A program made the translations under genes and the position numbers. A stretch of DNA of 36,098 nt from an uncultured Pseudomonadales bacterium (GTDB lineage Bacteria > Pseudomonadota > Gammaproteobacteria > Pseudomonadales > Azotimanducaceae), in NCBI GenBank assembly GCA_964548145.1, contig CAZJRX010000003.1, positions 1-36,098 on the forward strand, read 5' to 3'. Positions 16,870-30,897 of the stretch are shown in pieces. The first letter of the stretch is position 1; every line of letters starts with the position of its first letter. The notes beneath the pieces were generated by a model. It was given only the letters and a program-made list of their open reading frames with translations, was not told the DNA's origin and did no database searches.

Positions 16870-17355
16870 CTATTCCGGGAACGAGATGGCAGCGGGCGAG
16901 ATGAGGACGTTGAACTGTTCGCACCAGATCACGACCGAACCGAACCCGGCAAGGTCGATGCCTTGCGGAATCGCATAGTTCTGGCTGCCGACAAAAGACT
17001 TCAGGCGACCCAGATCGATGAACATCGTCCGTTCGACCTCGGTTTCGGGCGTGACCTCGGCGAGCGGGACGAGGTAGACGTGGAACTTCGGACCCGGTCC
17101 CACCTCGAAGTCGGACTCAAGACGCACCAAGTCCGTATACAGCGTCGCCGTGCCGCGACCATAGTGGATCGGATCGGCAGGATTGGCGTGGATGAAACTC
17201 GCTTCGGCCACCACCTCGCGTGCGGCCTCGTCATGCAGGGGCTCGTTCACGACCGGCGGCGGGAACAGGTAGGGAAACACGAGAATGCCCGCAGCGAACC
17301 CGAACCCGGTGCCGAGCACGCCACCGACGACGAAACCGATGATCAGGCGCTGCAT
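16870..17355 (-). CDS. DM13 domain protein with an N-terminal membrane anchor
   Basis: MQRLIIGFVVGGVLGTGFGFAAGILVF anchor, then a DM13-like pattern (..FIHANPADPIHYGRGTATLY.., GPGPKFHVYLVP.., VVIWCEQFNVLISPA). The ATG at 17355 sits 1 nt after the upstream AKR stop. The longer track ORF to 17487 would overlap the AKR gene. Confidence 0.72.
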   Translation of the reverse strand: MQRLIIGFVVGGVLGTGFGFAAGILVFPYLFPPPVVNEPLHDEAAREVVAEASFIHANPADPIHYGRGTATLYTDLVRLESDFEVGPGPKFHVYLVPLAEVTPETEVERTMFIDLGRLKSFVGSQNYAIPQGIDLAGFGSVVIWCEQFNVLISPAAISFPE

Positions 17356-17356
17356 G

Positions 17357-18352
17357 TCAGCTGATCGCCCGTGCCAGGTCCGCGTCGGCCAAGTCTTGCC
17401 AGAGCGCGTCCGGAATCTCGGTGGCAAACAAGTCGAGGTTCGCCTCCACCTCTGCGATCGCCCGAACCCCCGGGATGACCGCCGCAACAGCAGGGTGGCG
17501 AAGCGGGTACTGCAACGCCGCGGCTCGAGGGTCCACGTCGTGGGACTCGCACATCCGGCGAATGGCCTGCGCCTTCCGCCACAGGTGTTCCGGCGCCGGC
17601 TTGTAATCGTAGGTGGCGCGGCGACGATCGTCCGTGGCGAGTAGCCCCGAGTTGTACGGACCGCCGATTATGATCGAGGTTCGGCGTTCCAGGCACTTGG
17701 GCAGGAACTCGTCCAGTGGATCCTGCTCCAGCAGGGTAAAGCGTCCCGCCAGCAGGAAGCAGTCGACCTCCATCAGGTCCAGCACCTGGCTACAGACCGG
17801 CCATTCGTTGACGCCTAGACCGATTGCGCGCACGACGCCCTCATCGCGAAGAGCCCGCAACGCCGGCAGGGCACCCTTCTTCGCCGCCGCGAAGATCCCC
17901 GGCTGGGCATCACCGTGGGTCCATATGTCGATATCGTGGCAAAGCAGGATATCGACCCGGTCGAGGCCCAGTCGTTCCAGGCTCGCCTCGAGCGAACGCC
18001 TGACGGCGTCGAAGGAATAGTCGTAGCGGATGGCGACAGGTTCCGCATCCAGCATGCCCTCGAACCGTTCGCCTTCGGGCCGAGGCACCAGCAACCGTCC
18101 CACCTTGGTGGAAAGCACGAAGTCGTCGCGTGGTAGTTCACGCAGCGCCCTGCCAAGGCGTTTCTCGCTGAGACCGTGGCCGTATAGGGGTGCAGTATCG
18201 AAATACCGGATCCCGCCGGCGCGCGCACACTCCATGATGGCGGTGGCATCGTCGTCGGTGATACGGTCGCCCACCGCGCCGAGCGGGGCGCCACCGAAGC
18301 TGAGTTCGGTGACCTCGATGTCGGTGGCACCTATGTTCCGTCTGGCGATCAT
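17357..18352 (-). CDS. Aldo/keto reductase
   Basis: 331 aa. MIARRNIGATDIEVTELSFGGAPLG.., FDTAPLYGHGLSEKRLG, ..STKVGR.., ILLCHD. This is the typical AKR catalytic tetrad context (D, Y, K, H). Confidence 0.92.
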   Translation of the reverse strand: MIARRNIGATDIEVTELSFGGAPLGAVGDRITDDDATAIMECARAGGIRYFDTAPLYGHGLSEKRLGRALRELPRDDFVLSTKVGRLLVPRPEGERFEGMLDAEPVAIRYDYSFDAVRRSLEASLERLGLDRVDILLCHDIDIWTHGDAQPGIFAAAKKGALPALRALRDEGVVRAIGLGVNEWPVCSQVLDLMEVDCFLLAGRFTLLEQDPLDEFLPKCLERRTSIIIGGPYNSGLLATDDRRRATYDYKPAPEHLWRKAQAIRRMCESHDVDPRAAALQYPLRHPAVAAVIPGVRAIAEVEANLDLFATEIPDALWQDLADADLARAIS

Positions 18353-18481: not shown

Positions 18482-20905
18482 ATGCTCGAAGCCATGACGA
18501 AATCCACCCGGCGCTTGCCGATGGGGCCTGTCCTGATCGCCGTTCTGGGCCTCGCCAGCGGCATCAGTGCCGCAGAACGATCCAAAACCGGCAGTGTCCT
18601 TCACCTCGGGGGCGGTACGGCCGCCGTTGACGCAGCGCTGGTCGTGCCGCGGTTCTCGGAGGCCGAGGCCGCGATTCGTCTCGACGGCAATCTCGACGAT
18701 GCGATCTGGGCGCAAGTGCCGGCCTACGACCGGATGACGATCATCCGGCCCGACCAGGGCGGCACCGGGCGCTATCGAACACAGACCTTCATCTTCTACA
18801 CCGAACGGGGACTCTACTTCGGTGCCTGGAACGAACAGCCTGCGGACTCGCTGACGCCACGGCTTGCGGGACGCGACGGCTGGGGCACCGGCGACGCCTT
18901 CCAGGTCATGATCGACAGTTCCGGCGAAGGCCGCTACGGGTACTGGTTCATGGTGGTACTCGGCGGTACCTTGGCGGACGGCCACCTGATGCCCGAGCGT
19001 CGCTTCAGCAGCAACTGGGATGGACCCTGGCACGGTGAGACCCAGGAAACAGAGGACGGCTGGACGGTGGAGTTGTTCCTGCCCTGGTCCATGATCGACA
19101 TGCCCAGGACGGCGACCGGCGACCGGCAAATGGGGCTCCTGGTGACCCGCGACCTCGCCGTCGTCAACGAACGCTGGGCGTGGCCCGGGTTGTCATGGAT
19201 ACAGCCGAAATTCATTTCGGCGTTTCAACCGATGCTTTTCAGAGGAGTCGCGCCGCGTCAAGAAGTCAGCATCTTTCCCTACGCGACCCTCTTGCGCGAC
19301 ATCGCGCAAGGTCGGGAGCAGCGAAAGGCCGGCTTCGATGTCTTCTGGCGGCCATCCACCGCGTTCCTCCTCAATGCGGCGGTCAACCCCGATTTCGGCC
19401 AGGTCGAGGCAGACGACATCATCGTCAACCTCTCCGCCTACGAGACGTTCTTCGAGGAGAAACGGCTGTTCTTCACGGAGAACCAGGAGGTCTTCCGGTT
19501 CAGCGGCTACGGACCGAGCCTGCTGCACACCCGGCGCATCGGCTCGTCCATCGGTTCCCGGCGCGGTGCCCCGGACGTCGAACCCGGTATCGTCTACGAC
19601 GGTTACGACGTTGCCAAACCGGTCGATCTGCTGTTCGCTGCCAAGGGCGTCGGGCAGCTCGGCAACTGGCGCTGGGGTGCACTCGGCGCTGCGGAGGACG
19701 ACACGCTTCTCGGAATCGTCGACGCAGCCGGGAGGGCAGCCGCGGCCGGTCGAAATTTTGGGGTATTGCGCTGGCAACACGAGAGCACGGCCGGCGGCGC
19801 CCGCCGCGCAATCGGCTGGATGGGAACACTGGTCGACCACCCGACCCGGCGCGCAGAAACGCACGGTATCGACGGCCACTACCGTTCGGCCAACGCGAAA
19901 TGGACCTGGGACACGCAGGTGTTCCTGAGCGATGTCGCTGACAGCAGGGGTGCCGGGGGGTTGGGCCAGCTCCGATGGGCGCCGCGTCGGGGCGACACCC
20001 ACGTACTCCGCATGGACTACTACGACGACGAACTCGACCTCAACGACGCGGGCTTCATCTGGCGCAACGACTACCGCGGCATCTCGTATGGCTTCGAGCG
20101 TCAAGATCACCAAACCGAACGATTCCGCGAGGTCTTTAGCCAGTTTTCCATCTTCGCCGACTTCAACGGCGACCGTCGGATCGGGAGCACTGTCGACGTT
20201 GCCAGGCACTGGTCGTTCCACAACAACACCCGCGCCACCCTGCGAACCATCTACAGCCCCGGGTACTGGGACGACCGCAACAGCCGTGGCAACGGCGACT
20301 ATCGGGTACAGCGCAATGGCAGCATCATGACCACCTGGTCAAGTGACACCGCCAAACGCCTCTATGCGTTCATCGGCGGCGTGGCTCGTAGCGAGCCCGA
20401 AGGCGGTTGGCTTTTGGAAGCCGACGTCGGCACTACCTGGCGCCCGGTCGCCCGGCTCGCGGTTTCGTCTCGCCTCCGCTACACCAACCGCGATGCCTGG
20501 GTGCTATGGCAGCATGGTCGGCACTTCGAGGCGTTCGAGACCGAGCAGTGGTCACCGCGTCTGCAATTCGATGCCTTCTTCACCGCCCGTCAGCAGTTGC
20601 GGTTCCAAGCTGAATGGACAGGAATCAAGGCCTACGGCGTCGAACGGCTTCTCATCGATCCGCGCGGCAAGCTGGTGCCCAGCGGCATCGAAACCGGGCA
20701 ATTCGCCATTAGCAGACTGACGCTACAGGTCCGCTACCGCTGGCAGATCGCGCCGCTCTCCGATCTCTTCGTGGTCTACAACCGCAATGGATCGCTCTTC
20801 GAGTCGTCCACCGACAAGCGCTTCGCCGATCTCTTGGGGGACGCCTTTGCCGACGTGCGCCGCGAGGCCGTGCTCGTCAAGCTCCGCTACCGTTTCGGCC
20901 GATGA
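18482..20905 (+). CDS. Secreted CBM9-like / DUF5916-type large protein
   Basis: 807 aa with a signal peptide (..VLIAVLGLASGISAAE). The N-terminal region LDGNLDDAIWAQVPAYD..F..ERGLYFGAW resembles carbohydrate-binding family 9. The long beta-rich C-terminal part ends ..LVKLRYRFGR with a terminal aromatic, which is barrel-like. The family assignment is from memory. Confidence 0.75.
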   Translation: MLEAMTKSTRRLPMGPVLIAVLGLASGISAAERSKTGSVLHLGGGTAAVDAALVVPRFSEAEAAIRLDGNLDDAIWAQVPAYDRMTIIRPDQGGTGRYRTQTFIFYTERGLYFGAWNEQPADSLTPRLAGRDGWGTGDAFQVMIDSSGEGRYGYWFMVVLGGTLADGHLMPERRFSSNWDGPWHGETQETEDGWTVELFLPWSMIDMPRTATGDRQMGLLVTRDLAVVNERWAWPGLSWIQPKFISAFQPMLFRGVAPRQEVSIFPYATLLRDIAQGREQRKAGFDVFWRPSTAFLLNAAVNPDFGQVEADDIIVNLSAYETFFEEKRLFFTENQEVFRFSGYGPSLLHTRRIGSSIGSRRGAPDVEPGIVYDGYDVAKPVDLLFAAKGVGQLGNWRWGALGAAEDDTLLGIVDAAGRAAAAGRNFGVLRWQHESTAGGARRAIGWMGTLVDHPTRRAETHGIDGHYRSANAKWTWDTQVFLSDVADSRGAGGLGQLRWAPRRGDTHVLRMDYYDDELDLNDAGFIWRNDYRGISYGFERQDHQTERFREVFSQFSIFADFNGDRRIGSTVDVARHWSFHNNTRATLRTIYSPGYWDDRNSRGNGDYRVQRNGSIMTTWSSDTAKRLYAFIGGVARSEPEGGWLLEADVGTTWRPVARLAVSSRLRYTNRDAWVLWQHGRHFEAFETEQWSPRLQFDAFFTARQQLRFQAEWTGIKAYGVERLLIDPRGKLVPSGIETGQFAISRLTLQVRYRWQIAPLSDLFVVYNRNGSLFESSTDKRFADLLGDAFADVRREAVLVKLRYRFGR

Positions 20906-22197: not shown

Positions 22198-22241
22198 GTG
22201 CGGCGCGAGCACCTTGCGGTACGTTGATGGATGCGCCGCAC
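22198..22241. promoter_or_regulatory. Perfect 9-bp inverted repeat GTGCGGCGC-N26-GCGCCGCAC upstream of the precursor gene
   Basis: The arms lie at 22198-22206 and 22233-22241, between the transposase-like stop (22181) and the precursor RBS (AAGGGGGG at about 22253-22260). It could be an operator, a 5'-leader hairpin or a terminator of the upstream gene. Confidence 0.3.
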
Positions 22242-22266
22242 GGCGGTCCCTAAAGGGGGGTACGAA

Positions 22267-22578
22267 GTGAAAGCAACCGAGATGTTGGAGCAGTTGCTGT
22301 CGAGGGCGGGCGAAGACCCAGACTTTCGAACGCGCCTGCTGGCTGACCCGGAAGGAACACTAAAGGACGAATACGGGTTCAAGGTGCCTGAGGGAATGGA
22401 ACTGAAGGTAATCGAAGACTCGAGATCCACCTCGCACCTCGTCCTCCCGCCCAATCCGCAACTGAGCACGGCAGAAATGCGCGCGATCAGTGGCGGCGTT
22501 GGGAACGTCGACAACAACGAAGGCACCGGCGGTGGCGACACCGACTATACCCAACACCCGATCTTCCACGACAACTAG
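22267..22578 (+). CDS. NHLP (nitrile-hydratase-like leader peptide) family RiPP precursor with a double-glycine cleavage site
   Basis: ..MLEQLLSRAGEDPDFRTRLLADPEGTLKDEYGFKVPEGMELKVIEDSRSTSHLVLPPNPQLSTAEMRAISGG | VGNVDNNEGTGGGDTDYTQHPIFHDN. The leader follows the NHLP consensus (..D..F...Ll.nP...l.e.G..lPeg.e.kV.e.....hLVLPpnP...s..el..i.GG). The GTG at 22267 sits 6 nt after AAGGGGGG. The track ATG at 22231 and the ATG at 22282 are alternatives. Confidence 0.85.
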   Translation: MKATEMLEQLLSRAGEDPDFRTRLLADPEGTLKDEYGFKVPEGMELKVIEDSRSTSHLVLPPNPQLSTAEMRAISGGVGNVDNNEGTGGGDTDYTQHPIFHDN

Positions 22579-22583
22579 CCCGC

Positions 22584-22669
22584 AGCCCGACGAATGATGG
22601 CCATAATACGGCATCGCAAATGCGATTCGAGTGAGAGCCTTTTGCCGCGTTCATTAGACTAACGGGCTT
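22584..22669. repeat. Copy A of an 86-nt element shared with the interior of the oxygenase gene (direct orientation)
   Basis: Hand alignment with 29370-29453 gives 71 identical of 86 columns, 13 mismatches and two 1-nt indels. The identical runs are 13, 11, 11, 10 and 9 nt long. It starts 6 nt after the precursor stop codon. Confidence 0.8.
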
Positions 22670-22724: not shown

Positions 22725-22814
22725 CGAGGGGATCCATCGCCGCCCGGACAGGCACGCAGGCTCCGCACAACGTGTTAGAGTCGGCCCCTTCGAGGGGATC
22801 CTGCCGCCTGGACA
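22725..22814. repeat. Two ~25-nt direct repeats 66 bp apart, upstream of the HlyD-like gene
   Basis: CGAGGGGATCCATCGCCGCCCGGACA (22725-22750) against CGAGGGGATCC-T-GCCGCCTGGACA (22791-22814). Each contains a GGATCC palindrome. The second is preceded by a CCCCT-tcg-AGGGG hairpin. Confidence 0.6.
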
Positions 22815-22850
22815 ACGCCAGTCGACGGCATACACACGTCGGAAGCGACC

Positions 22851-23555
22851 GTGCCCAACCGTTTCCCATGGGATAGATCGGAACGTCCCCGCGCTGGCGA
22901 CGCGAGTCCCCGTTCGAAGAATGCGCGCCTGCCCCACCAACCGCCGACCGCCAGTGACCGTGGATCGGAGGAGCCGGCGACGACCAAACCGCAGCTCTTC
23001 GCCAGCAACCGGTTGTTCAACGAAGAGGCGCTCAAGATGAGCGCCGAACTGGAGCCGGTCGACAATCCGACCCGTTCCACCACGCCGTACCAACCGCATG
23101 TCCTCGTTGCCCTTGGCCTAGTGCTCGTCGGCGCCCTCGCTTGGCTCCTACTCGGCGTCGTGGACCACAGCCTATGGCTGCGGGCCGAACGTATCGACGG
23201 TGCCGCCGTTGCGCCACCCGGTTCTGCGCCCGTCGTCCGGTTGCGCACGGTAGTCTCGCCCTCGGATGGCGAACTCCTGGCACCCGGGATGACCGCGTAT
23301 GTCTTTCAGGGCGGTTCCGATGGCGTTTTTTTCGAGGGTTCAATCAGTCGCGTGACCCGCGACACGTCCCACCAGGCGACGCCAACCACCAGGAGGGTCC
23401 TGCAGATCGATGTCTCGCCAACGACGACGTTGGTGCTCGAGCCTAGCGATACGGACTCGAGCTATCGGCTACGGGTGCCGATTGGTTCGCAAGCGCCGGT
23501 GGATCTGCTCCTCGGCTTAGTCAGCCGGCGAACCGCCGTAACCGAGGACGGATGA
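22851..23555 (+). CDS. Short HlyD-family-like adaptor of the NHLP export system
   Basis: 234 aa with a GTG start. RLFNEEALKMSAELEPVD matches the lFR.eAL..lss.e.LD N-terminal motif of bacteriocin HlyD proteins. A TM segment follows (HVLVALGLVLVGALAWLLLGVV), then a single beta-rich domain (..LAPGMTAYVF..GVFFEGSISRV..). The stop overlaps the ABC start (ATGA at 23552-23555). Confidence 0.62.
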   Translation: MPNRFPWDRSERPRAGDASPRSKNARLPHQPPTASDRGSEEPATTKPQLFASNRLFNEEALKMSAELEPVDNPTRSTTPYQPHVLVALGLVLVGALAWLLLGVVDHSLWLRAERIDGAAVAPPGSAPVVRLRTVVSPSDGELLAPGMTAYVFQGGSDGVFFEGSISRVTRDTSHQATPTTRRVLQIDVSPTTTLVLEPSDTDSSYRLRVPIGSQAPVDLLLGLVSRRTAVTEDG

Positions 23556-25744
23556 GGTCCGCATTCGCCGAGTTCCGGGGCCGATTGCGTCGCATTCGAA
23601 GGACCCCGGTTTTCCAGCAGATTCAAGCCAGCGAATGCGGTGCCGCGAGCCTGGGCATCGTTCTCGCGAGCCTCGGCAAGTGGGTTCGGATGAACGAGCT
23701 GTGCAGCGCTTGCGGCGTGAGCCGGGACGGATGTTCCGCGGCGGACATTCAACGAGCGGCAGCGCAATACGGCGTCGACGTGACCGGCTGGCAGCGCTCC
23801 GCCGAATACCTGAAGAGCCTCAAGACCCCTGCAATCCTGTTCTGGGAGTTTAGCCACTTCCTTGTGCTTGACGGATTCAAGAAAAACCGCTTCCACATCA
23901 ACGATCCGGCGAACGGCCACTACACGCTCGACGAGGCGACCTTCAAGGCGCGCTACATGGGCATCGTTCTGCTATTGCATCCGGGGCCGAATTTCACGCC
24001 ATCGGGTAGACCCTTCTCGCTCTGGCGGCAACTCCTGCCCTGGGTCCGTGACGAGAAGACCCCGATCATCCTCGCCTTCATGCTCGGCGTGCTATTGGCG
24101 GTGCCTACCTTGGCCCTGCCCGAGCTCATACGGTATTTCACCGACGCGGCGACCGGGCCAACCCGCCCCTCCGCCGTTCTGGTGGTAGGCGGCGCGGTTA
24201 CCATCGCGGGCTCGGTGTTTGCGCTCGTGTGGGGTCAGCAGCGAATCCTCCTCGCGGCCAGCATGCGAATCGCCGTCGCGCAGTCCGAACGCTTTCTTGC
24301 GGCGCTGTTGCGACTGCCCATGGCGTACTTCGCGCAACGCCTGTCCGGGGAACTGGCGTCGCGCACGCGGTTGCTCGACAACATCGCGAACACGGCCACA
24401 GCCCGGCTGGCGCAACTCATGATCGAGCTCACGATGAGCACGATCTACCTGGTCTGGATCGTACTTCAGGATTTGCTCCTCGCCGGTACAGCCGTGGTGG
24501 TTGCCGCATCGAACGTTGCCCTCGCCCGTTGGGTCTCCCACCGGCGCAAGCACGAGAACTTTCGGTTGCGCCGCAGCCAAGGCATGTTGTCGGGCATCGG
24601 CACGATGGGCGTAAAGAACCTCGACTCCCTCCGAGCTTCCGGTGCCGAGGGAGACTTCTTCACGCGTTTCAGCGGCTACCAAGCCCTTGAACTCGGCTAT
24701 CGCCAACGCTCTGCGGAACTCGGTGCCATTGCGAACTCATTGCCACCGTTCTTTCTCATGCTGGGCGGCGCCGTGGTCCTCGGCGTGGGCGGCATGCGCG
24801 TGATATCGGGGGATATGTCCATCGGCGACGTCGCCGCCACCTACTTCGTGATCGGCAGCTTCCTTTTGCCCATCGGCAGGTACGTCGAGTCGGTGGGACT
24901 GATACAGATCCTCGAAGCCGACATGCGGCGTGTAAAGGATGTCCTGGATGCCGACCCGGACGCCAGTGCGGAAACACCAGCCAAGTCAAGCCGAGTCGCC
25001 AGCATCGGTCGACGCCTGCGTCTCTCCGGGCGGCTAGAGCTGCGCGATGTCACCTTCGGCTATCGACCACATCACGAGCCGATCATCGAAGGGTTCAATC
25101 TGACCCTCGAACCCGGCCAGCGAGTCGCGCTGGTCGGGCCGAGCGGTTCCGGCAAATCGACGATCGCGTCTCTGATCGCCGGCGTCCATAGGCCTTGGTC
25201 CGGCGAAATACTGTTCGACGGACACGCCCGCGACGACATTCCCCGCGAAGTCGCAATCGACTCGGTTGCCTACGTGAACCAGCGGGTAAACCTCTTTTCC
25301 GGCAGCGTCCGGGACAACCTCACCATGTGGAACCCGACAGTTCCGGATGGCCTCGTGGTCGGCGCGGCCCAGGACGCGCATATTCACGACGAGATCGCAC
25401 AGCGACCGCTGGGCTACGACACGCTGGTAGACGAAGGCGGCAACAACTTCAGCGGCGGCCAACGGCAGAGGCTGGAGATCGCCCGAGCACTCGTACCCCG
25501 ACCGTCATTGATCATTCTCGACGAAGCGACGAGCGACCTCGACGCCGCCGTGGAGTCCCGCATCGATGATGCCCTCCGCCGCCGGGGTTGCGCATGCCTC
25601 ATCGTTGCCCACCGGCTGAGCACGATACGCGACAGCGACGAAATCCTCGTTCTCGATCGTGGCCGGACCGCCCAGCGCGGTCAGCACGAAGAGTTGATGC
25701 GGGAGGAAACGGGCCTCTATCACTCCCTGGTGACGTCGCAGTAG
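23552..25744 (+). CDS. NHLP-type bacteriocin ABC exporter with an N-terminal C39 peptidase domain (peptidase/permease/ATPase)
   Basis: 730 aa. C39 catalytic context QASECGAASLGIVL, ..FSHFLVLDG.. and ..INDPANG. A six-TM permease region follows. Walker A GPSGSGKST, signature FSGGQRQR, Walker B LIILDEATS. Confidence 0.93.
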   Translation: MRSAFAEFRGRLRRIRRTPVFQQIQASECGAASLGIVLASLGKWVRMNELCSACGVSRDGCSAADIQRAAAQYGVDVTGWQRSAEYLKSLKTPAILFWEFSHFLVLDGFKKNRFHINDPANGHYTLDEATFKARYMGIVLLLHPGPNFTPSGRPFSLWRQLLPWVRDEKTPIILAFMLGVLLAVPTLALPELIRYFTDAATGPTRPSAVLVVGGAVTIAGSVFALVWGQQRILLAASMRIAVAQSERFLAALLRLPMAYFAQRLSGELASRTRLLDNIANTATARLAQLMIELTMSTIYLVWIVLQDLLLAGTAVVVAASNVALARWVSHRRKHENFRLRRSQGMLSGIGTMGVKNLDSLRASGAEGDFFTRFSGYQALELGYRQRSAELGAIANSLPPFFLMLGGAVVLGVGGMRVISGDMSIGDVAATYFVIGSFLLPIGRYVESVGLIQILEADMRRVKDVLDADPDASAETPAKSSRVASIGRRLRLSGRLELRDVTFGYRPHHEPIIEGFNLTLEPGQRVALVGPSGSGKSTIASLIAGVHRPWSGEILFDGHARDDIPREVAIDSVAYVNQRVNLFSGSVRDNLTMWNPTVPDGLVVGAAQDAHIHDEIAQRPLGYDTLVDEGGNNFSGGQRQRLEIARALVPRPSLIILDEATSDLDAAVESRIDDALRRRGCACLIVAHRLSTIRDSDEILVLDRGRTAQRGQHEELMREETGLYHSLVTSQ

Positions 25745-28674: not shown

Positions 28675-30249
28675 CTACAGTGCCTGCCCGCCGGGGTCGT
28701 TGACGAAAACAACGTCCTCCTTGAGTAGCTGCCTGACGAAGTCGTCGACGAAGTCGATGGCGAAGCGACCCGCATGCGCCGTCTTCAGTTCGCCAACCGG
28801 GATCGACTCGCGGTCGGCGATCATACGGAGGAGGTCGAGACAATAGACGTCGAACTCACGCACCAGGCCATTTGCCCTCAACCAGAAGGAACCAGTTCCC
28901 GGCGGCACATCAAGTACCGCTTGGCGCCTACCCCTGAGCGAGAGCTCGAAGGCATCCCAGTCGGGTGATTTCCACGGTTCGATGTAGGTTGACAGTGCGG
29001 TTCGGGTCGACTCCGTCCACGCGGCGCGGACATCCTCCGCAAAGCGCTCGCCGAAGTCGTCGTGAAGCTGCCCCCGGATGAGATCCGCCACTGCCGCAAA
29101 GTAGCTCGATCGTACTGTTTCGTCCGCCGCCAACGGTGTGTTCCGGCGGAACAATTCGTGGTCGAGCAACTTCCTTTCAAGCCAGCGGAGAATCCAGGTG
29201 CCGGTAACGGTACGCGTGCCGAGCGTGAGATGAACGCTGCCGACGCCTTCGTCGGCGCAATCGACGCGTGCATCATGCCACCACCCACGCGGGATGAAGA
29301 GCACATCGCCTGCCGTCAATGTCCCGACCCAGGCCGGGTGTGGCGGGCTTTCGCTAGCGGGGGCACCCCAGCCCGACGAGTGATGGCCATAGTCCGGCAT
29401 CGCAACGCGACTCGAGTGAGAGCCCCTTTCCGCGTTCAATGGACTAGTCGGTTGACTGTCGTAACTCGTCGGCGAGGATCGAGTCGGCTTGAACAGACGC
29501 CATTCCTTGGCGCCGGTCACTTGGATGACGAAGACATCGTGGTCGTCCCAGTGCGTGGCGAAGCCCCGGGTCGAGTGCCACGAGGCATATAGATTGACAT
29601 TCACGTAGGTTGCCAAGGCGCCCTCGATGTCACGGGCCAGGCGCGCGACGGGCGGATGGTATTCCTGGATCGCGTTCACGATGAGTGTCGAACCGGTACG
29701 CAGGAAATTCGCGAGTTTCCTGCCATCGATCCTTGACACGTTCGGCCCGGGTTGGCGACTGCCAAGGCCCAGGTTGTCGACCTGGTAAAGGTAGTCAGCC
29801 GTCTCTCGGCCGTCGGCGATCAGGTGAACCAGCGGTGGGCGCAGGTTCCTAAGGCAGACAATTTCGTTCAGGTCATCCCACGTCACCAGACCCGCGAAAC
29901 GGTCGTCGCGGCCACGAAAGATCACGGGCCTCGGGTCGCCGTGCTGCCGCGTCGCGAATTCGGCGATATCGAGCGGTGCGATCAGCGAATCGATGCCCCC
30001 CAGACTCGACGACCCTTCGGGTGATTCGATTTCCTCGAGGACGAGACGCTCGCCATCCTCGCCGGCACCATCCGACTCCGGCTCCAGTCGAATCTTGAGG
30101 TTCGGGACGCCCGCCTTCCTCGACAGGTGTTCGAGTACCGCTTCCTCGTGGCGGTTCTCGCGCTGGTAGACGGCATGGTCGATGGGTCCGGCTGCGACAA
30201 ATGCCTTGCCCAGGAACATTTCGTGCGCGTTACGGGTTGGTTCGGCCAT
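28675..30249 (-). CDS. JmjC / cupin-4-type Fe(II)/2-oxoglutarate-dependent oxygenase with N- and C-terminal extensions (candidate RiPP tailoring enzyme)
   Basis: 524 aa with GGAG 6 nt before the ATG. FATHWDDHDVFVIQVTGAKEWRLF (HxD at aa 233/235), LTAGDVLFIPRGWWHDA and GSVHLTLG (distal His340) match the RoxA/YcfD-type cupin-4 signature. It is convergent with ABC2 across a 45-nt gap. Confidence 0.85.
   Translation of the reverse strand: MAEPTRNAHEMFLGKAFVAAGPIDHAVYQRENRHEEAVLEHLSRKAGVPNLKIRLEPESDGAGEDGERLVLEEIESPEGSSSLGGIDSLIAPLDIAEFATRQHGDPRPVIFRGRDDRFAGLVTWDDLNEIVCLRNLRPPLVHLIADGRETADYLYQVDNLGLGSRQPGPNVSRIDGRKLANFLRTGSTLIVNAIQEYHPPVARLARDIEGALATYVNVNLYASWHSTRGFATHWDDHDVFVIQVTGAKEWRLFKPTRSSPTSYDSQPTSPLNAERGSHSSRVAMPDYGHHSSGWGAPASESPPHPAWVGTLTAGDVLFIPRGWWHDARVDCADEGVGSVHLTLGTRTVTGTWILRWLERKLLDHELFRRNTPLAADETVRSSYFAAVADLIRGQLHDDFGERFAEDVRAAWTESTRTALSTYIEPWKSPDWDAFELSLRGRRQAVLDVPPGTGSFWLRANGLVREFDVYCLDLLRMIADRESIPVGELKTAHAGRFAIDFVDDFVRQLLKEDVVFVNDPGGQAL
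29370..29453. repeat. Copy B of the shared element, lying in-frame inside the oxygenase gene (encodes aa ~266-294, QPTSPLNAERGSHSSRVAMPDYGHHSSGW)
   Basis: See copy A. It has the same plus-strand orientation, so it is antisense to the oxygenase mRNA. Confidence 0.8.
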
Positions 30250-30321: not shown

Positions 30322-30897
30322 TCACGTGGGTCGCGTCACCATGGTCGGCCCGGCCACGCCCAACGGGCGATCCCGATAGTCCAACGGATAACGTCGGGCG
30401 TGGGCGTTGTGCTCGCGCCACAACGCCACGAACCACTCCGGTACCTGTTCGTCGCCGCATTGATCGGCGAGTCGGTTCTCGCCGTCGAGGCGCCAACCAT
30501 CAACCGGCGCAACACATCGAACCCGATGACCCCACCGAACCAGTTCGCCAACGCCGGTATCGGCCGCGAACCGACGTAGGTACTCCAGCACGCGGGCATG
30601 ATGCGGGTACCGGGGCCAGTCGTCGCCACCACCGCCGGCATCGTCGAAGGTGTACCCGTCGAACGCCATCAAGTCGCGCGGCAGGTTGACGCGCATCGAC
30701 TCGTAGAGGGAAGTGTGAATGCGCCGGGTTGTTCGTTGGCCGAGCGGGTCGTCCTCGACCGAGTCCGTGTAGTTCCACAGGCCACCGACCTGCGTCGACT
30801 GCTCGAACACCGTCACGCGGTGATTCTCCCGGCGGAGCTCGTGTGCCGTTACGAGACCCGCAGCACCCGCGCCGATGACGGCCACTCGCATCGGCAT
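30322..30897 (-). pseudogene. Truncated flavin-containing monooxygenase (N-terminal FAD-binding part only)
   Basis: MRVAVIGAGAAGLVTAHELRRENHRVTVFEQSTQVGGLWNY..IHTSLYESMRVNLPRDLMAF..YPHHARVLEYLRRFA.. matches the first ~130-160 aa of FMO/GS-OX-type enzymes, which are normally ~430-460 aa. The FMO-identifying motif, the NADPH GxGxxG and the C-terminal half are absent. The ORF ends 72 nt before the oxygenase start. Confidence 0.55.

Follow-up and report, generated by a model that had tools for sequence, protein, structure and literature searches.

A CTAG-bounded interspersed repeat at the precursor stop codon and inside the JmjC oxygenase gene of an NHLP-type RiPP cluster

Repeated DNA within a biosynthetic gene cluster raises the question of whether the copies serve the pathway or simply reside in it. 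In the NHLP-type RiPP cluster described here, which was recognised by Pfam in an uncultured Pseudomonadales bacterium, nearly the same segment of DNA is found directly behind the precursor peptide gene and again inside the gene of a JmjC oxygenase read from the opposite strand. The initial annotation of this locus proposed that the segment makes the 3′ flank of the precursor antisense to the oxygenase mRNA, thereby coupling the substrate to the enzyme, and that the substitutions between the two copies preserve a common fold. A small mobile or REP-like element and a relic of an ancestral oxygenase gene were named as alternatives. Throughout the text, the window refers to the whole stretch of DNA that was analysed (36,098 nt). 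The features of the window that are needed to follow the argument are listed below.

22231–22578, + strand: NHLP-type precursor peptide gene (NHase_alpha and Frankia_peptide Pfam matches; start codon uncertain)
22575–22662, + strand: copy A of the repeat, 88 nt, CTAG...CTAA (family alignment; nhmmer E = 2e-22)
22591–22629, + strand: proposed helices P1 and P2 in copy A (equivalent in copy B, 29377–29414)
22851–23555, + strand: conserved gene with no Pfam family
23552–25744, + strand: C39-peptidase ABC exporter (Pfam)
up to 28629, + strand: second ABC transporter (Pfam)
28675–30249, − strand: JmjC/cupin oxygenase (524 aa), in whose gene copy B lies; it resembles ribosomal oxygenases and its frame is intact
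29354–29447, + strand: copy B of the repeat, full length, 94 nt, CTAG...CTAG (nhmmer E = 9e-27)
past the oxygenase, − strand: FMO-like gene, SDR and family-B DNA polymerase (Pfam)
30322–30897, − strand: the FMO-like gene as a remnant of 191 aa with an in-frame internal deletion (alignment to the orthologue in locus L001)

The extent of the repeat pair was examined by local alignment, which paired positions 22580–22661 with 29366–29446 on the same strand over 82 columns, with 85% identity and one 1-nt indel. The pair is far above chance: when the oxygenase region was compared with the rest of the window by blastn, the repeat reached E = 1.8e-20, and the runner-up was a match of 23 nt at E = 0.004. 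The initial annotation had counted 71 identical columns out of 86, and our recount over the same coordinates came close to this, at 72 of 87 with 4 gap columns. The interval that it had assigned to the precursor-side copy (22584–22669) largely coincides with the repeat, and its final ∼7 bases fall outside the element. Its observation that peptide fragments recur in two different reverse frames was reproduced by tblastn (AMPYYGHHSSG and LMNAAKGSHSN). Copy A and copy B are separated by 12 substitutions (4 A>G, 4 T>C and 4 others) and 8 gap columns.

An interspersed repeat is characterised by multiple copies, unrelated flanks and sharp common boundaries. Further copies were retrieved with a protein query made by concatenating the six-frame translations of the element, after which the encoding contigs were read and profiled with nhmmer. 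In this way, 15 non-redundant copies were recovered, spread over 8 contigs of at least six assemblies, with a family consensus of 95 nt (CTAGCGGGGGCACCCCAGCCCGACGAGTGATGGTGACAATACGGCATCGAAACTTGACTCGAGTGAGAGCCTTTTGCCGCGTTCAAGGGATCTAG). The copies measure 88–95 nt, their six frames yield short peptides only, and their flanks are mutually unrelated. Every copy starts with CTAG and most also end with it, while tandem copies have one CTAG in common. The main family unit lengthens its site by 91 nt and copy B by 90 nt, in each case the element plus one CTAG. These results demonstrate dispersed copies in unrelated surroundings, and the mobile or REP-like element that had been listed as an alternative is therefore what the evidence shows. 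The two window copies, which are 85% identical mutually and ∼80% identical to the other family copies, thus constitute a subfamily of their own.

The dispersed copies belong to genomes of other uncultured bacteria that are probably related. Non-index copies occur at roughly one per 27 kb in the sister contigs, a rough density that does not transfer to the window's genome; there, 2 copies were found in the 36 kb that were read, and the element is probably multi-copy in that genome as well. Unrelated proteins were seen to run through the element, namely spurious ORFs, an outer-membrane efflux protein, a DUF934 protein and an IS5-type transposase fragment. With matches this short, the word-indexed protein search was incomplete. 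It missed the window oxygenase itself (P0001) and, in a second search, also P0126 and P0127, despite their containing the query segment, so the number of proteins found to carry the element is a lower bound. With HMMER, the 35-aa insert was compared with 1.84 billion representative proteins; P0126 and P0128 were the only true matches, the others being of low complexity.

At the nucleotide level, a scan of a public genome-contig collection with the pattern GATGGCCATANNNCGGCATCGC, to which copy A corresponds exactly, gave 5 matches, none of which extended past the pattern. Pattern scans of JGI metagenomes gave 0 matches in one block and 20 chance matches in the other, none of which was extended by blastn with the consensus, and viral contigs and PLSDB plasmids gave 0 matches. 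The nhmmer profile detected no copy in seven orthologous NHLP-JmjC loci (L001, L002 and L036–L040; 147 kb).

The boundaries of copy A were then related to the precursor gene, which ends in ...CAC GAC AAC TAG. The final C and the TAG stop together form the CTAG at 22575–22578 that is taken by copy A, so that the element includes the precursor stop codon; the opposite end is CTAA at 22659–22662. Relative to copy B and the family consensus, copy A is without 7 nt (GGGGGCA) near its 5′ end. The window precursor is 88% identical to the precursors of L001 and L002, which end in the same ...CACGACAACTAG and are without the element. In the more distant loci L037–L040, the precursor ends in GAC-TAG and the element is likewise absent. 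The site of copy A is empty in these six orthologous loci, and the stop reads CTAG in all six.

The precursor itself contains a GG motif, ...EMRAISGG/VGNVDNNEGTGGGDTDYTQHPIFHDN, in which VGNVDNNEGTGGGDTDYTQHPIFHDN is the predicted core. The neighbouring C39-peptidase ABC exporter would be suited to cleave at this motif. The core is rich in Asp, Asn and His, which makes it a plausible substrate of a JmjC hydroxylase related to the ribosomal His/Arg hydroxylases.

A separate observation concerns the DNA further downstream, where an intergenic block of ∼100 nt (about 22768–22865, + strand) is located just upstream of the GTG start of the next gene at 22851. The same block is found in L001 (about 17610–17710, − strand) and L002 (about 19145–19235, − strand), with 83–89% identity by blastn across the three loci, and the intergenic DNA around it is unalignable among them. 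Its sequence allows three hairpins (CCCCT/AGGGG, TGCCG-CTGG/CCAG-CGGCA and one more that would span the likely RBS and start codon), although three sequences carry essentially no covariation information. The block has no Rfam match and was not detected in L036–L040. In L001, an unrelated extra segment of ∼300 nt (about 17290–17590, − strand) separates the conserved block from the next gene. The similar short sequences on its two sides, GGGTTAGCCCGGA and GGGCTAGTTCGGA, suggest that a further small element may have inserted there at a (C/T)TAG site.

Copy B has the same orientation as copy A and is located inside the minus-strand JmjC ORF, to which it adds a net 90 nt in frame. The resulting 30 codons correspond to about residues 268–297 (SPLNAERGSHSSRVAMPDYGHHSSGWGAPA). 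In an alignment of 20 oxygenase homologues, with identities of up to 77%, this 30-residue insert was present in the window oxygenase only and missing from the other 19. The same was evident at the DNA level, where the two closest orthologous loci, L001 and L002, displayed a clean gap of 90 nt exactly at copy B. The copy lies between ...CCGA and CGAAAGC..., at which point L001 has ACAT and L002 has ACGT.

The AlphaFold model of the oxygenase places residues 258–299 between the barrel strands 247–255 and 307–312, with pLDDT values below 50. The best solved-structure matches of the model were NO66, MINA53 and YcfD. H233, D235 and H340 occupy invariant columns of the homologue alignment and are taken to be the metal ligands. 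When the element consensus was translated, only one of its six frames was open through both CTAGs, and this is the frame used in the oxygenase. The ORF therefore survived the arrival of copy B because exactly 90 nt were added and because the orientation and frame were free of stops. Since the net gain is 91 nt for the main family unit but 90 nt for copy B, this survival is an accident of one copy and not a trait of the family.

The tetranucleotide CTAG is strongly depleted in the window: base composition predicts 119 occurrences and a Markov model 59, but only 35 are present, three of which are boundaries of the element. Copies of the element in other genomes also adjoin or replace the ends of genes, so that gene 3′ ends are remodelled repeatedly (copies at L010 11307–11400, L033 10455–10549 and L034 14470–14564, the efflux protein, DUF934 and FtsX stop cases). 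In the FtsX case, copy L034b, the CTAG of the element coincides with the TAG stop of the gene, whereas in the outer-membrane efflux (OEP) protein P0127 and the DUF934 protein P0131 the element forms the last 30–35 residues. Genic copies other than copy B replace, truncate or extend C-termini. The positions at gene ends can be understood because a TAG stop codon preceded by C supplies the scarce CTAG.

Taken together, copies A and B are very probably copies of a selfish, ∼95-nt non-autonomous interspersed repeat inserted at CTAG, and their antisense complementarity appears to be a by-product of this. The repeat would integrate at the rare tetranucleotide CTAG and end up bracketed by CTAG on both sides, a bracketing that would fit a duplication of TA or CTAG, or an element carrying its own 3′ CTAG. 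Copy A would have entered the CTAG of the AAC-TAG stop of the precursor, regenerating the stop and becoming the first bases of the 3′ flank. Copy B would have entered an ACTAGC in a surface loop of the oxygenase, with the ORF kept and 30 extra loop residues gained. The element probably is or was mobile, and it appears to be without an adaptive role in this cluster.

The element was compared with known families of short bacterial repeats. Rickettsia palindromic elements (RPEs) are selfish repeats inserted in frame into protein-coding genes (reviewed in PMC10969869). The likeness is found in copy B, a short in-frame repeat in an enzyme gene whose peptide is located in a predicted loop and whose ORF is intact. 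RPEs are, however, about 150 bp long and palindromic, and insert in frame family-wide, whereas the CTAG element is not palindromic and its main unit of 91 nt is not a multiple of three. The 90-nt addition is limited to the window copy, which is also the only internal in-frame copy, the other genic copies altering C-termini. Recurrent in-frame insertion together with a palindrome was thus not seen in the family. The host lineage also differs, the relatives of the window being annotated as Gammaproteobacteria or Pseudomonadales MAGs.

A second comparison is offered by the MITEs of the IS630/Tc1-mariner group (RUP, Correia-like; TA duplication). IS630 itself targets CTAG. As in these MITEs, the element is small, dispersed and multi-copy, is without a transposase gene and is bracketed by (C)TA(G). 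CTAG or TA was observed on both sides of the element, and the corresponding AAC-TAG is empty in L001 and L002. Furthermore, IS630-like elements with the same CTAG brackets occur in sister genomes. The difference lies in the termini, since the element has no terminal inverted repeats (TIRs): its left end, GCGGGGGCACCCC, and its reverse-complemented right end, GATCCCTTGAACG, have only the palindromic CTAG in common. Neither end resembles the TIRs of the IS630-like elements or of a ∼300-bp derived MITE in L008.

REP/REPIN-RAYT elements and derivatives of IS200/IS605 provide the third comparison. The element shares with them its shortness, abundance, mostly intergenic or gene-end placement, the missing TIRs and a boundary tetranucleotide, as well as a small GGGG-GCA-CCCC hairpin just inside its left (5′) end. 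Neighbouring copies were co-oriented in four of five pairs by a count from coordinates, which is not significant. The element differs in having no overall palindrome or REPIN-type hairpin and in having CTAG at its boundary where REPs have a GTAG head. Within the loci read, we found no stable hairpin of this type, no GTAG head, no RAYT and no Y1/HUH transposase gene. The family is most suitably classed among the small non-autonomous interspersed repeats, as a new family of a known kind.

Several other CTAG-bounded elements were observed in the same contigs. A 1230-bp IS630-like IS (HTH and DDE_3) with CTAG on both sides is located at L010 7894–9123 and L033 2332–3561, and is 99.5% identical between these two contigs of one assembly. 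The ∼300-bp IS630-derived MITE at L008 6065–6366 has matching inverted ends and abuts a copy of the 95-nt element, with which it has one CTAG in common. At L034 9809–10393, the left end of an IS5-family element (CTAG followed by GGAAGCTCTGAATAAG) is accompanied by a truncated DUF772 transposase ORF, and this fragment stops exactly where a copy of the 95-nt element starts.

Given that the co-resident IS630-like, MITE and IS5-type elements are all CTAG-bounded, mobilisation in trans by a CTAG-targeting DDE transposase is plausible, and the element may have been moved in this manner. Parentage by the co-resident IS630-like IS was considered and not established, as the CTAG brackets are the same and the termini dissimilar; a link to IS5 was rejected, the TIR of the L034 fragment being unrelated to the element. 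The missing TIRs and the dissimilar ends also speak against such a transposase. The element has neither TIRs nor a palindromic body, yet it shows precise CTAG bracketing and clean empty sites, and a non-classical mobilisation is therefore possible. HUH-type enzymes act by a single-strand mechanism in which they cleave 3′ of a tetranucleotide and recognise a subterminal hairpin. Such a mechanism fits both the missing TIRs and the GGGG-GCA-CCCC hairpin near the left end. It can accordingly be imagined that a mobile element was moved by a non-classical route, either an HUH-type enzyme cleaving 3′ of CTAG at both ends or a CTAG-specific nuclease, and that a multiple-of-three version of it can colonise protein loops in this one lineage. 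We consider this extended reading unlikely, and co-option of the duplex between copies A and B would be a more speculative addition to it.

A different origin for the pair would be local copying, in which a single insertion was followed by ectopic repair or gene conversion, one window copy serving as the template for the other. Only 6.8 kb of one cluster separates the two copies, which point the same way, and the states GGCCATA and GCAA(A)xGCGA are found in both of them and in no other sampled copy. These common states are, however, equally well explained by a genome-specific subfamily. Both copies sit at CTAG with complete element boundaries, as do the dispersed copies elsewhere, and their homology ends exactly at the element termini with no flanking DNA carried along. 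Their 15% divergence and the 7-nt indel also indicate that neither was recently derived from the other. Local copying is therefore regarded as quite improbable.

The preferred reading, two independent members of a dispersed repeat family, was next weighed against a host function of the element as a structured RNA or DNA, for instance a REP-like mRNA stabiliser, an attenuator or a protein-binding site kept after the precursor. The helices that had been drawn in the initial annotation, P1 (22591–22595 with 22625–22629) and P2, were found at those positions, and the A:T versus G:C difference in P1 between the two copies is real. Across 14 aligned copies, P1 and P2 pair in 90% of cells; that most copies can accommodate the helices simply reflects sequence conservation. 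The consensus also contains an 8-nt palindrome (ACTCGAGT), and many copies are located at gene 3′ ends, a placement already explained by TAG stops supplying CTAG.

The claim that the substitutions are structure-preserving, in the sense of evidence for selection, did not survive the comparison of these 14 copies. Only one compensatory cell was identified, in copy A, and 133 of 500 column shuffles did equally well. In copy L031b, the G-to-A change seen in copy A is present but uncompensated, and the sixth pair of P2 forms in only 3 of the 14 copies. No significant covariation was observed for P1 and P2, and the covariation term of RNAalifold was unfavourable (positive) on both strands. Neither strand of the consensus, whether treated as RNA or as DNA, folded better than its dinucleotide shuffles, with z values of +0.5, +1.0, −0.1 and +0.45. 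For the window copies, the values were −0.8, +0.6, −2.0 and −0.1, where the marginal −2.0 belongs to the minus strand of copy A only, copy B folding no better than its shuffles. Rfam returned nothing at gathering thresholds nor at E values up to 10, and ARAGORN returned nothing. The GGGG-GCA-CCCC hairpin is lost in copy A, and no T-tract terminator is present behind the precursor. The data thus give neither a covariation nor a thermodynamic signal, and structural selection has no statistical support. A retained structural function after the precursor is very unlikely.

Regulation between opposed transcripts was the central proposal of the initial annotation, according to which a precursor transcript running through copy A would pair in trans with the oxygenase mRNA and so tie together the stability or translation of substrate and enzyme. 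The physical part of this proposal was confirmed. A precursor transcript continuing beyond its stop would carry a segment complementary to the oxygenase mRNA, since two same-orientation copies of the repeat lie in oppositely transcribed genes; the transcripts would have a stretch of 82 nt in common with 85% complementarity. RNAduplex gave −143 kcal/mol for the precursor-side and oxygenase-side segments, compared with −52 ± 6 for shuffles. As copy A begins at the stop codon, it would be transcribed along with the precursor, and no terminator-like site (no T-tract) was found on the + strand between the precursor stop and the next gene.

The regulatory part fared differently. A conserved antisense coupling within the cluster is not supported, since the element is a dispersed repeat and since none of the seven orthologous NHLP-oxygenase loci (L001, L002, L036–L040) has it, be it inside the oxygenase gene or behind the precursor. 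With the insert also missing from the 19 oxygenase homologues, neither antisense partner is conserved, and copies A and B are lineage-specific insertions. The resemblance to antisense regulation of opposed transcripts consists in the complementarity; the difference is that the pairing is not conserved and derives from a generic repeat, any further genomic copies of which would be equally complementary. Nor does the pair carry the covariation or thermodynamic signal of a selected structure. The adjoining FMO-like gene is also informative. Its product aligns to residues 1–138 and 361–416 of the intact 416-aa orthologue in L001, with ∼222 residues missing, and because the gene is such an internal-deletion remnant, the cluster in this genome may be decaying; this hints at decay of the cluster and not at a gain of regulation. 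We therefore regard trans-antisense coupling as a slim prospect, and a selected regulatory role of the complementarity between copies A and B as about equally slim, although an incidental regulatory effect may occur in this one strain.

Two weaker explanations are readily dismissed. The window is a short metagenome-type contig, and a pair with one non-coding and one coding copy is superficially similar to the TR/VR pair of a diversity-generating retroelement. An assembly artefact or such a retroelement is nevertheless highly improbable: 12 substitutions, 8 gap columns and clean boundaries are not what collapse or duplication during assembly would leave, the element recurs in many unrelated surroundings, the substitutions are not adenine-specific, and Pfam identified no reverse transcriptase among the 10 cluster proteins scanned. 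Lastly, the translated fragments of copy A resemble oxygenase residues 270–295, which had suggested a relic of an ancestral second oxygenase gene beside the precursor, but those residues are the inserted element itself, absent from every homologue, and the similarity around copy A ends at 82 nt in both DNA and protein (blastn, tblastn), so that the common segment is an insertion into the oxygenase, not ancestral sequence, and the relic is rejected with next to no chance of being correct.

The results have consequences for how this cluster is annotated and used. Despite its apparently compensatory change, the pair formed by copies A and B represents two insertions of a generic selfish repeat and does not warrant annotation as a regulatory RNA of the RiPP cluster. 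For heterologous expression of the cluster, it is relevant that the oxygenase bears a foreign loop of 30 aa and that the adjacent FMO-like gene is an internal-deletion remnant. More broadly, the repeats constitute an apparently so far undescribed family of ∼95-nt CTAG-bounded elements in uncultured high-GC bacteria. Targeting of CTAG sets such elements exactly on TAG stop codons, and can also rewrite the C-termini of proteins. Copy B, in turn, provides a natural example of a 30-residue in-frame insertion that is tolerated, at least at the level of the ORF, in a loop of a JmjC peptide hydroxylase.
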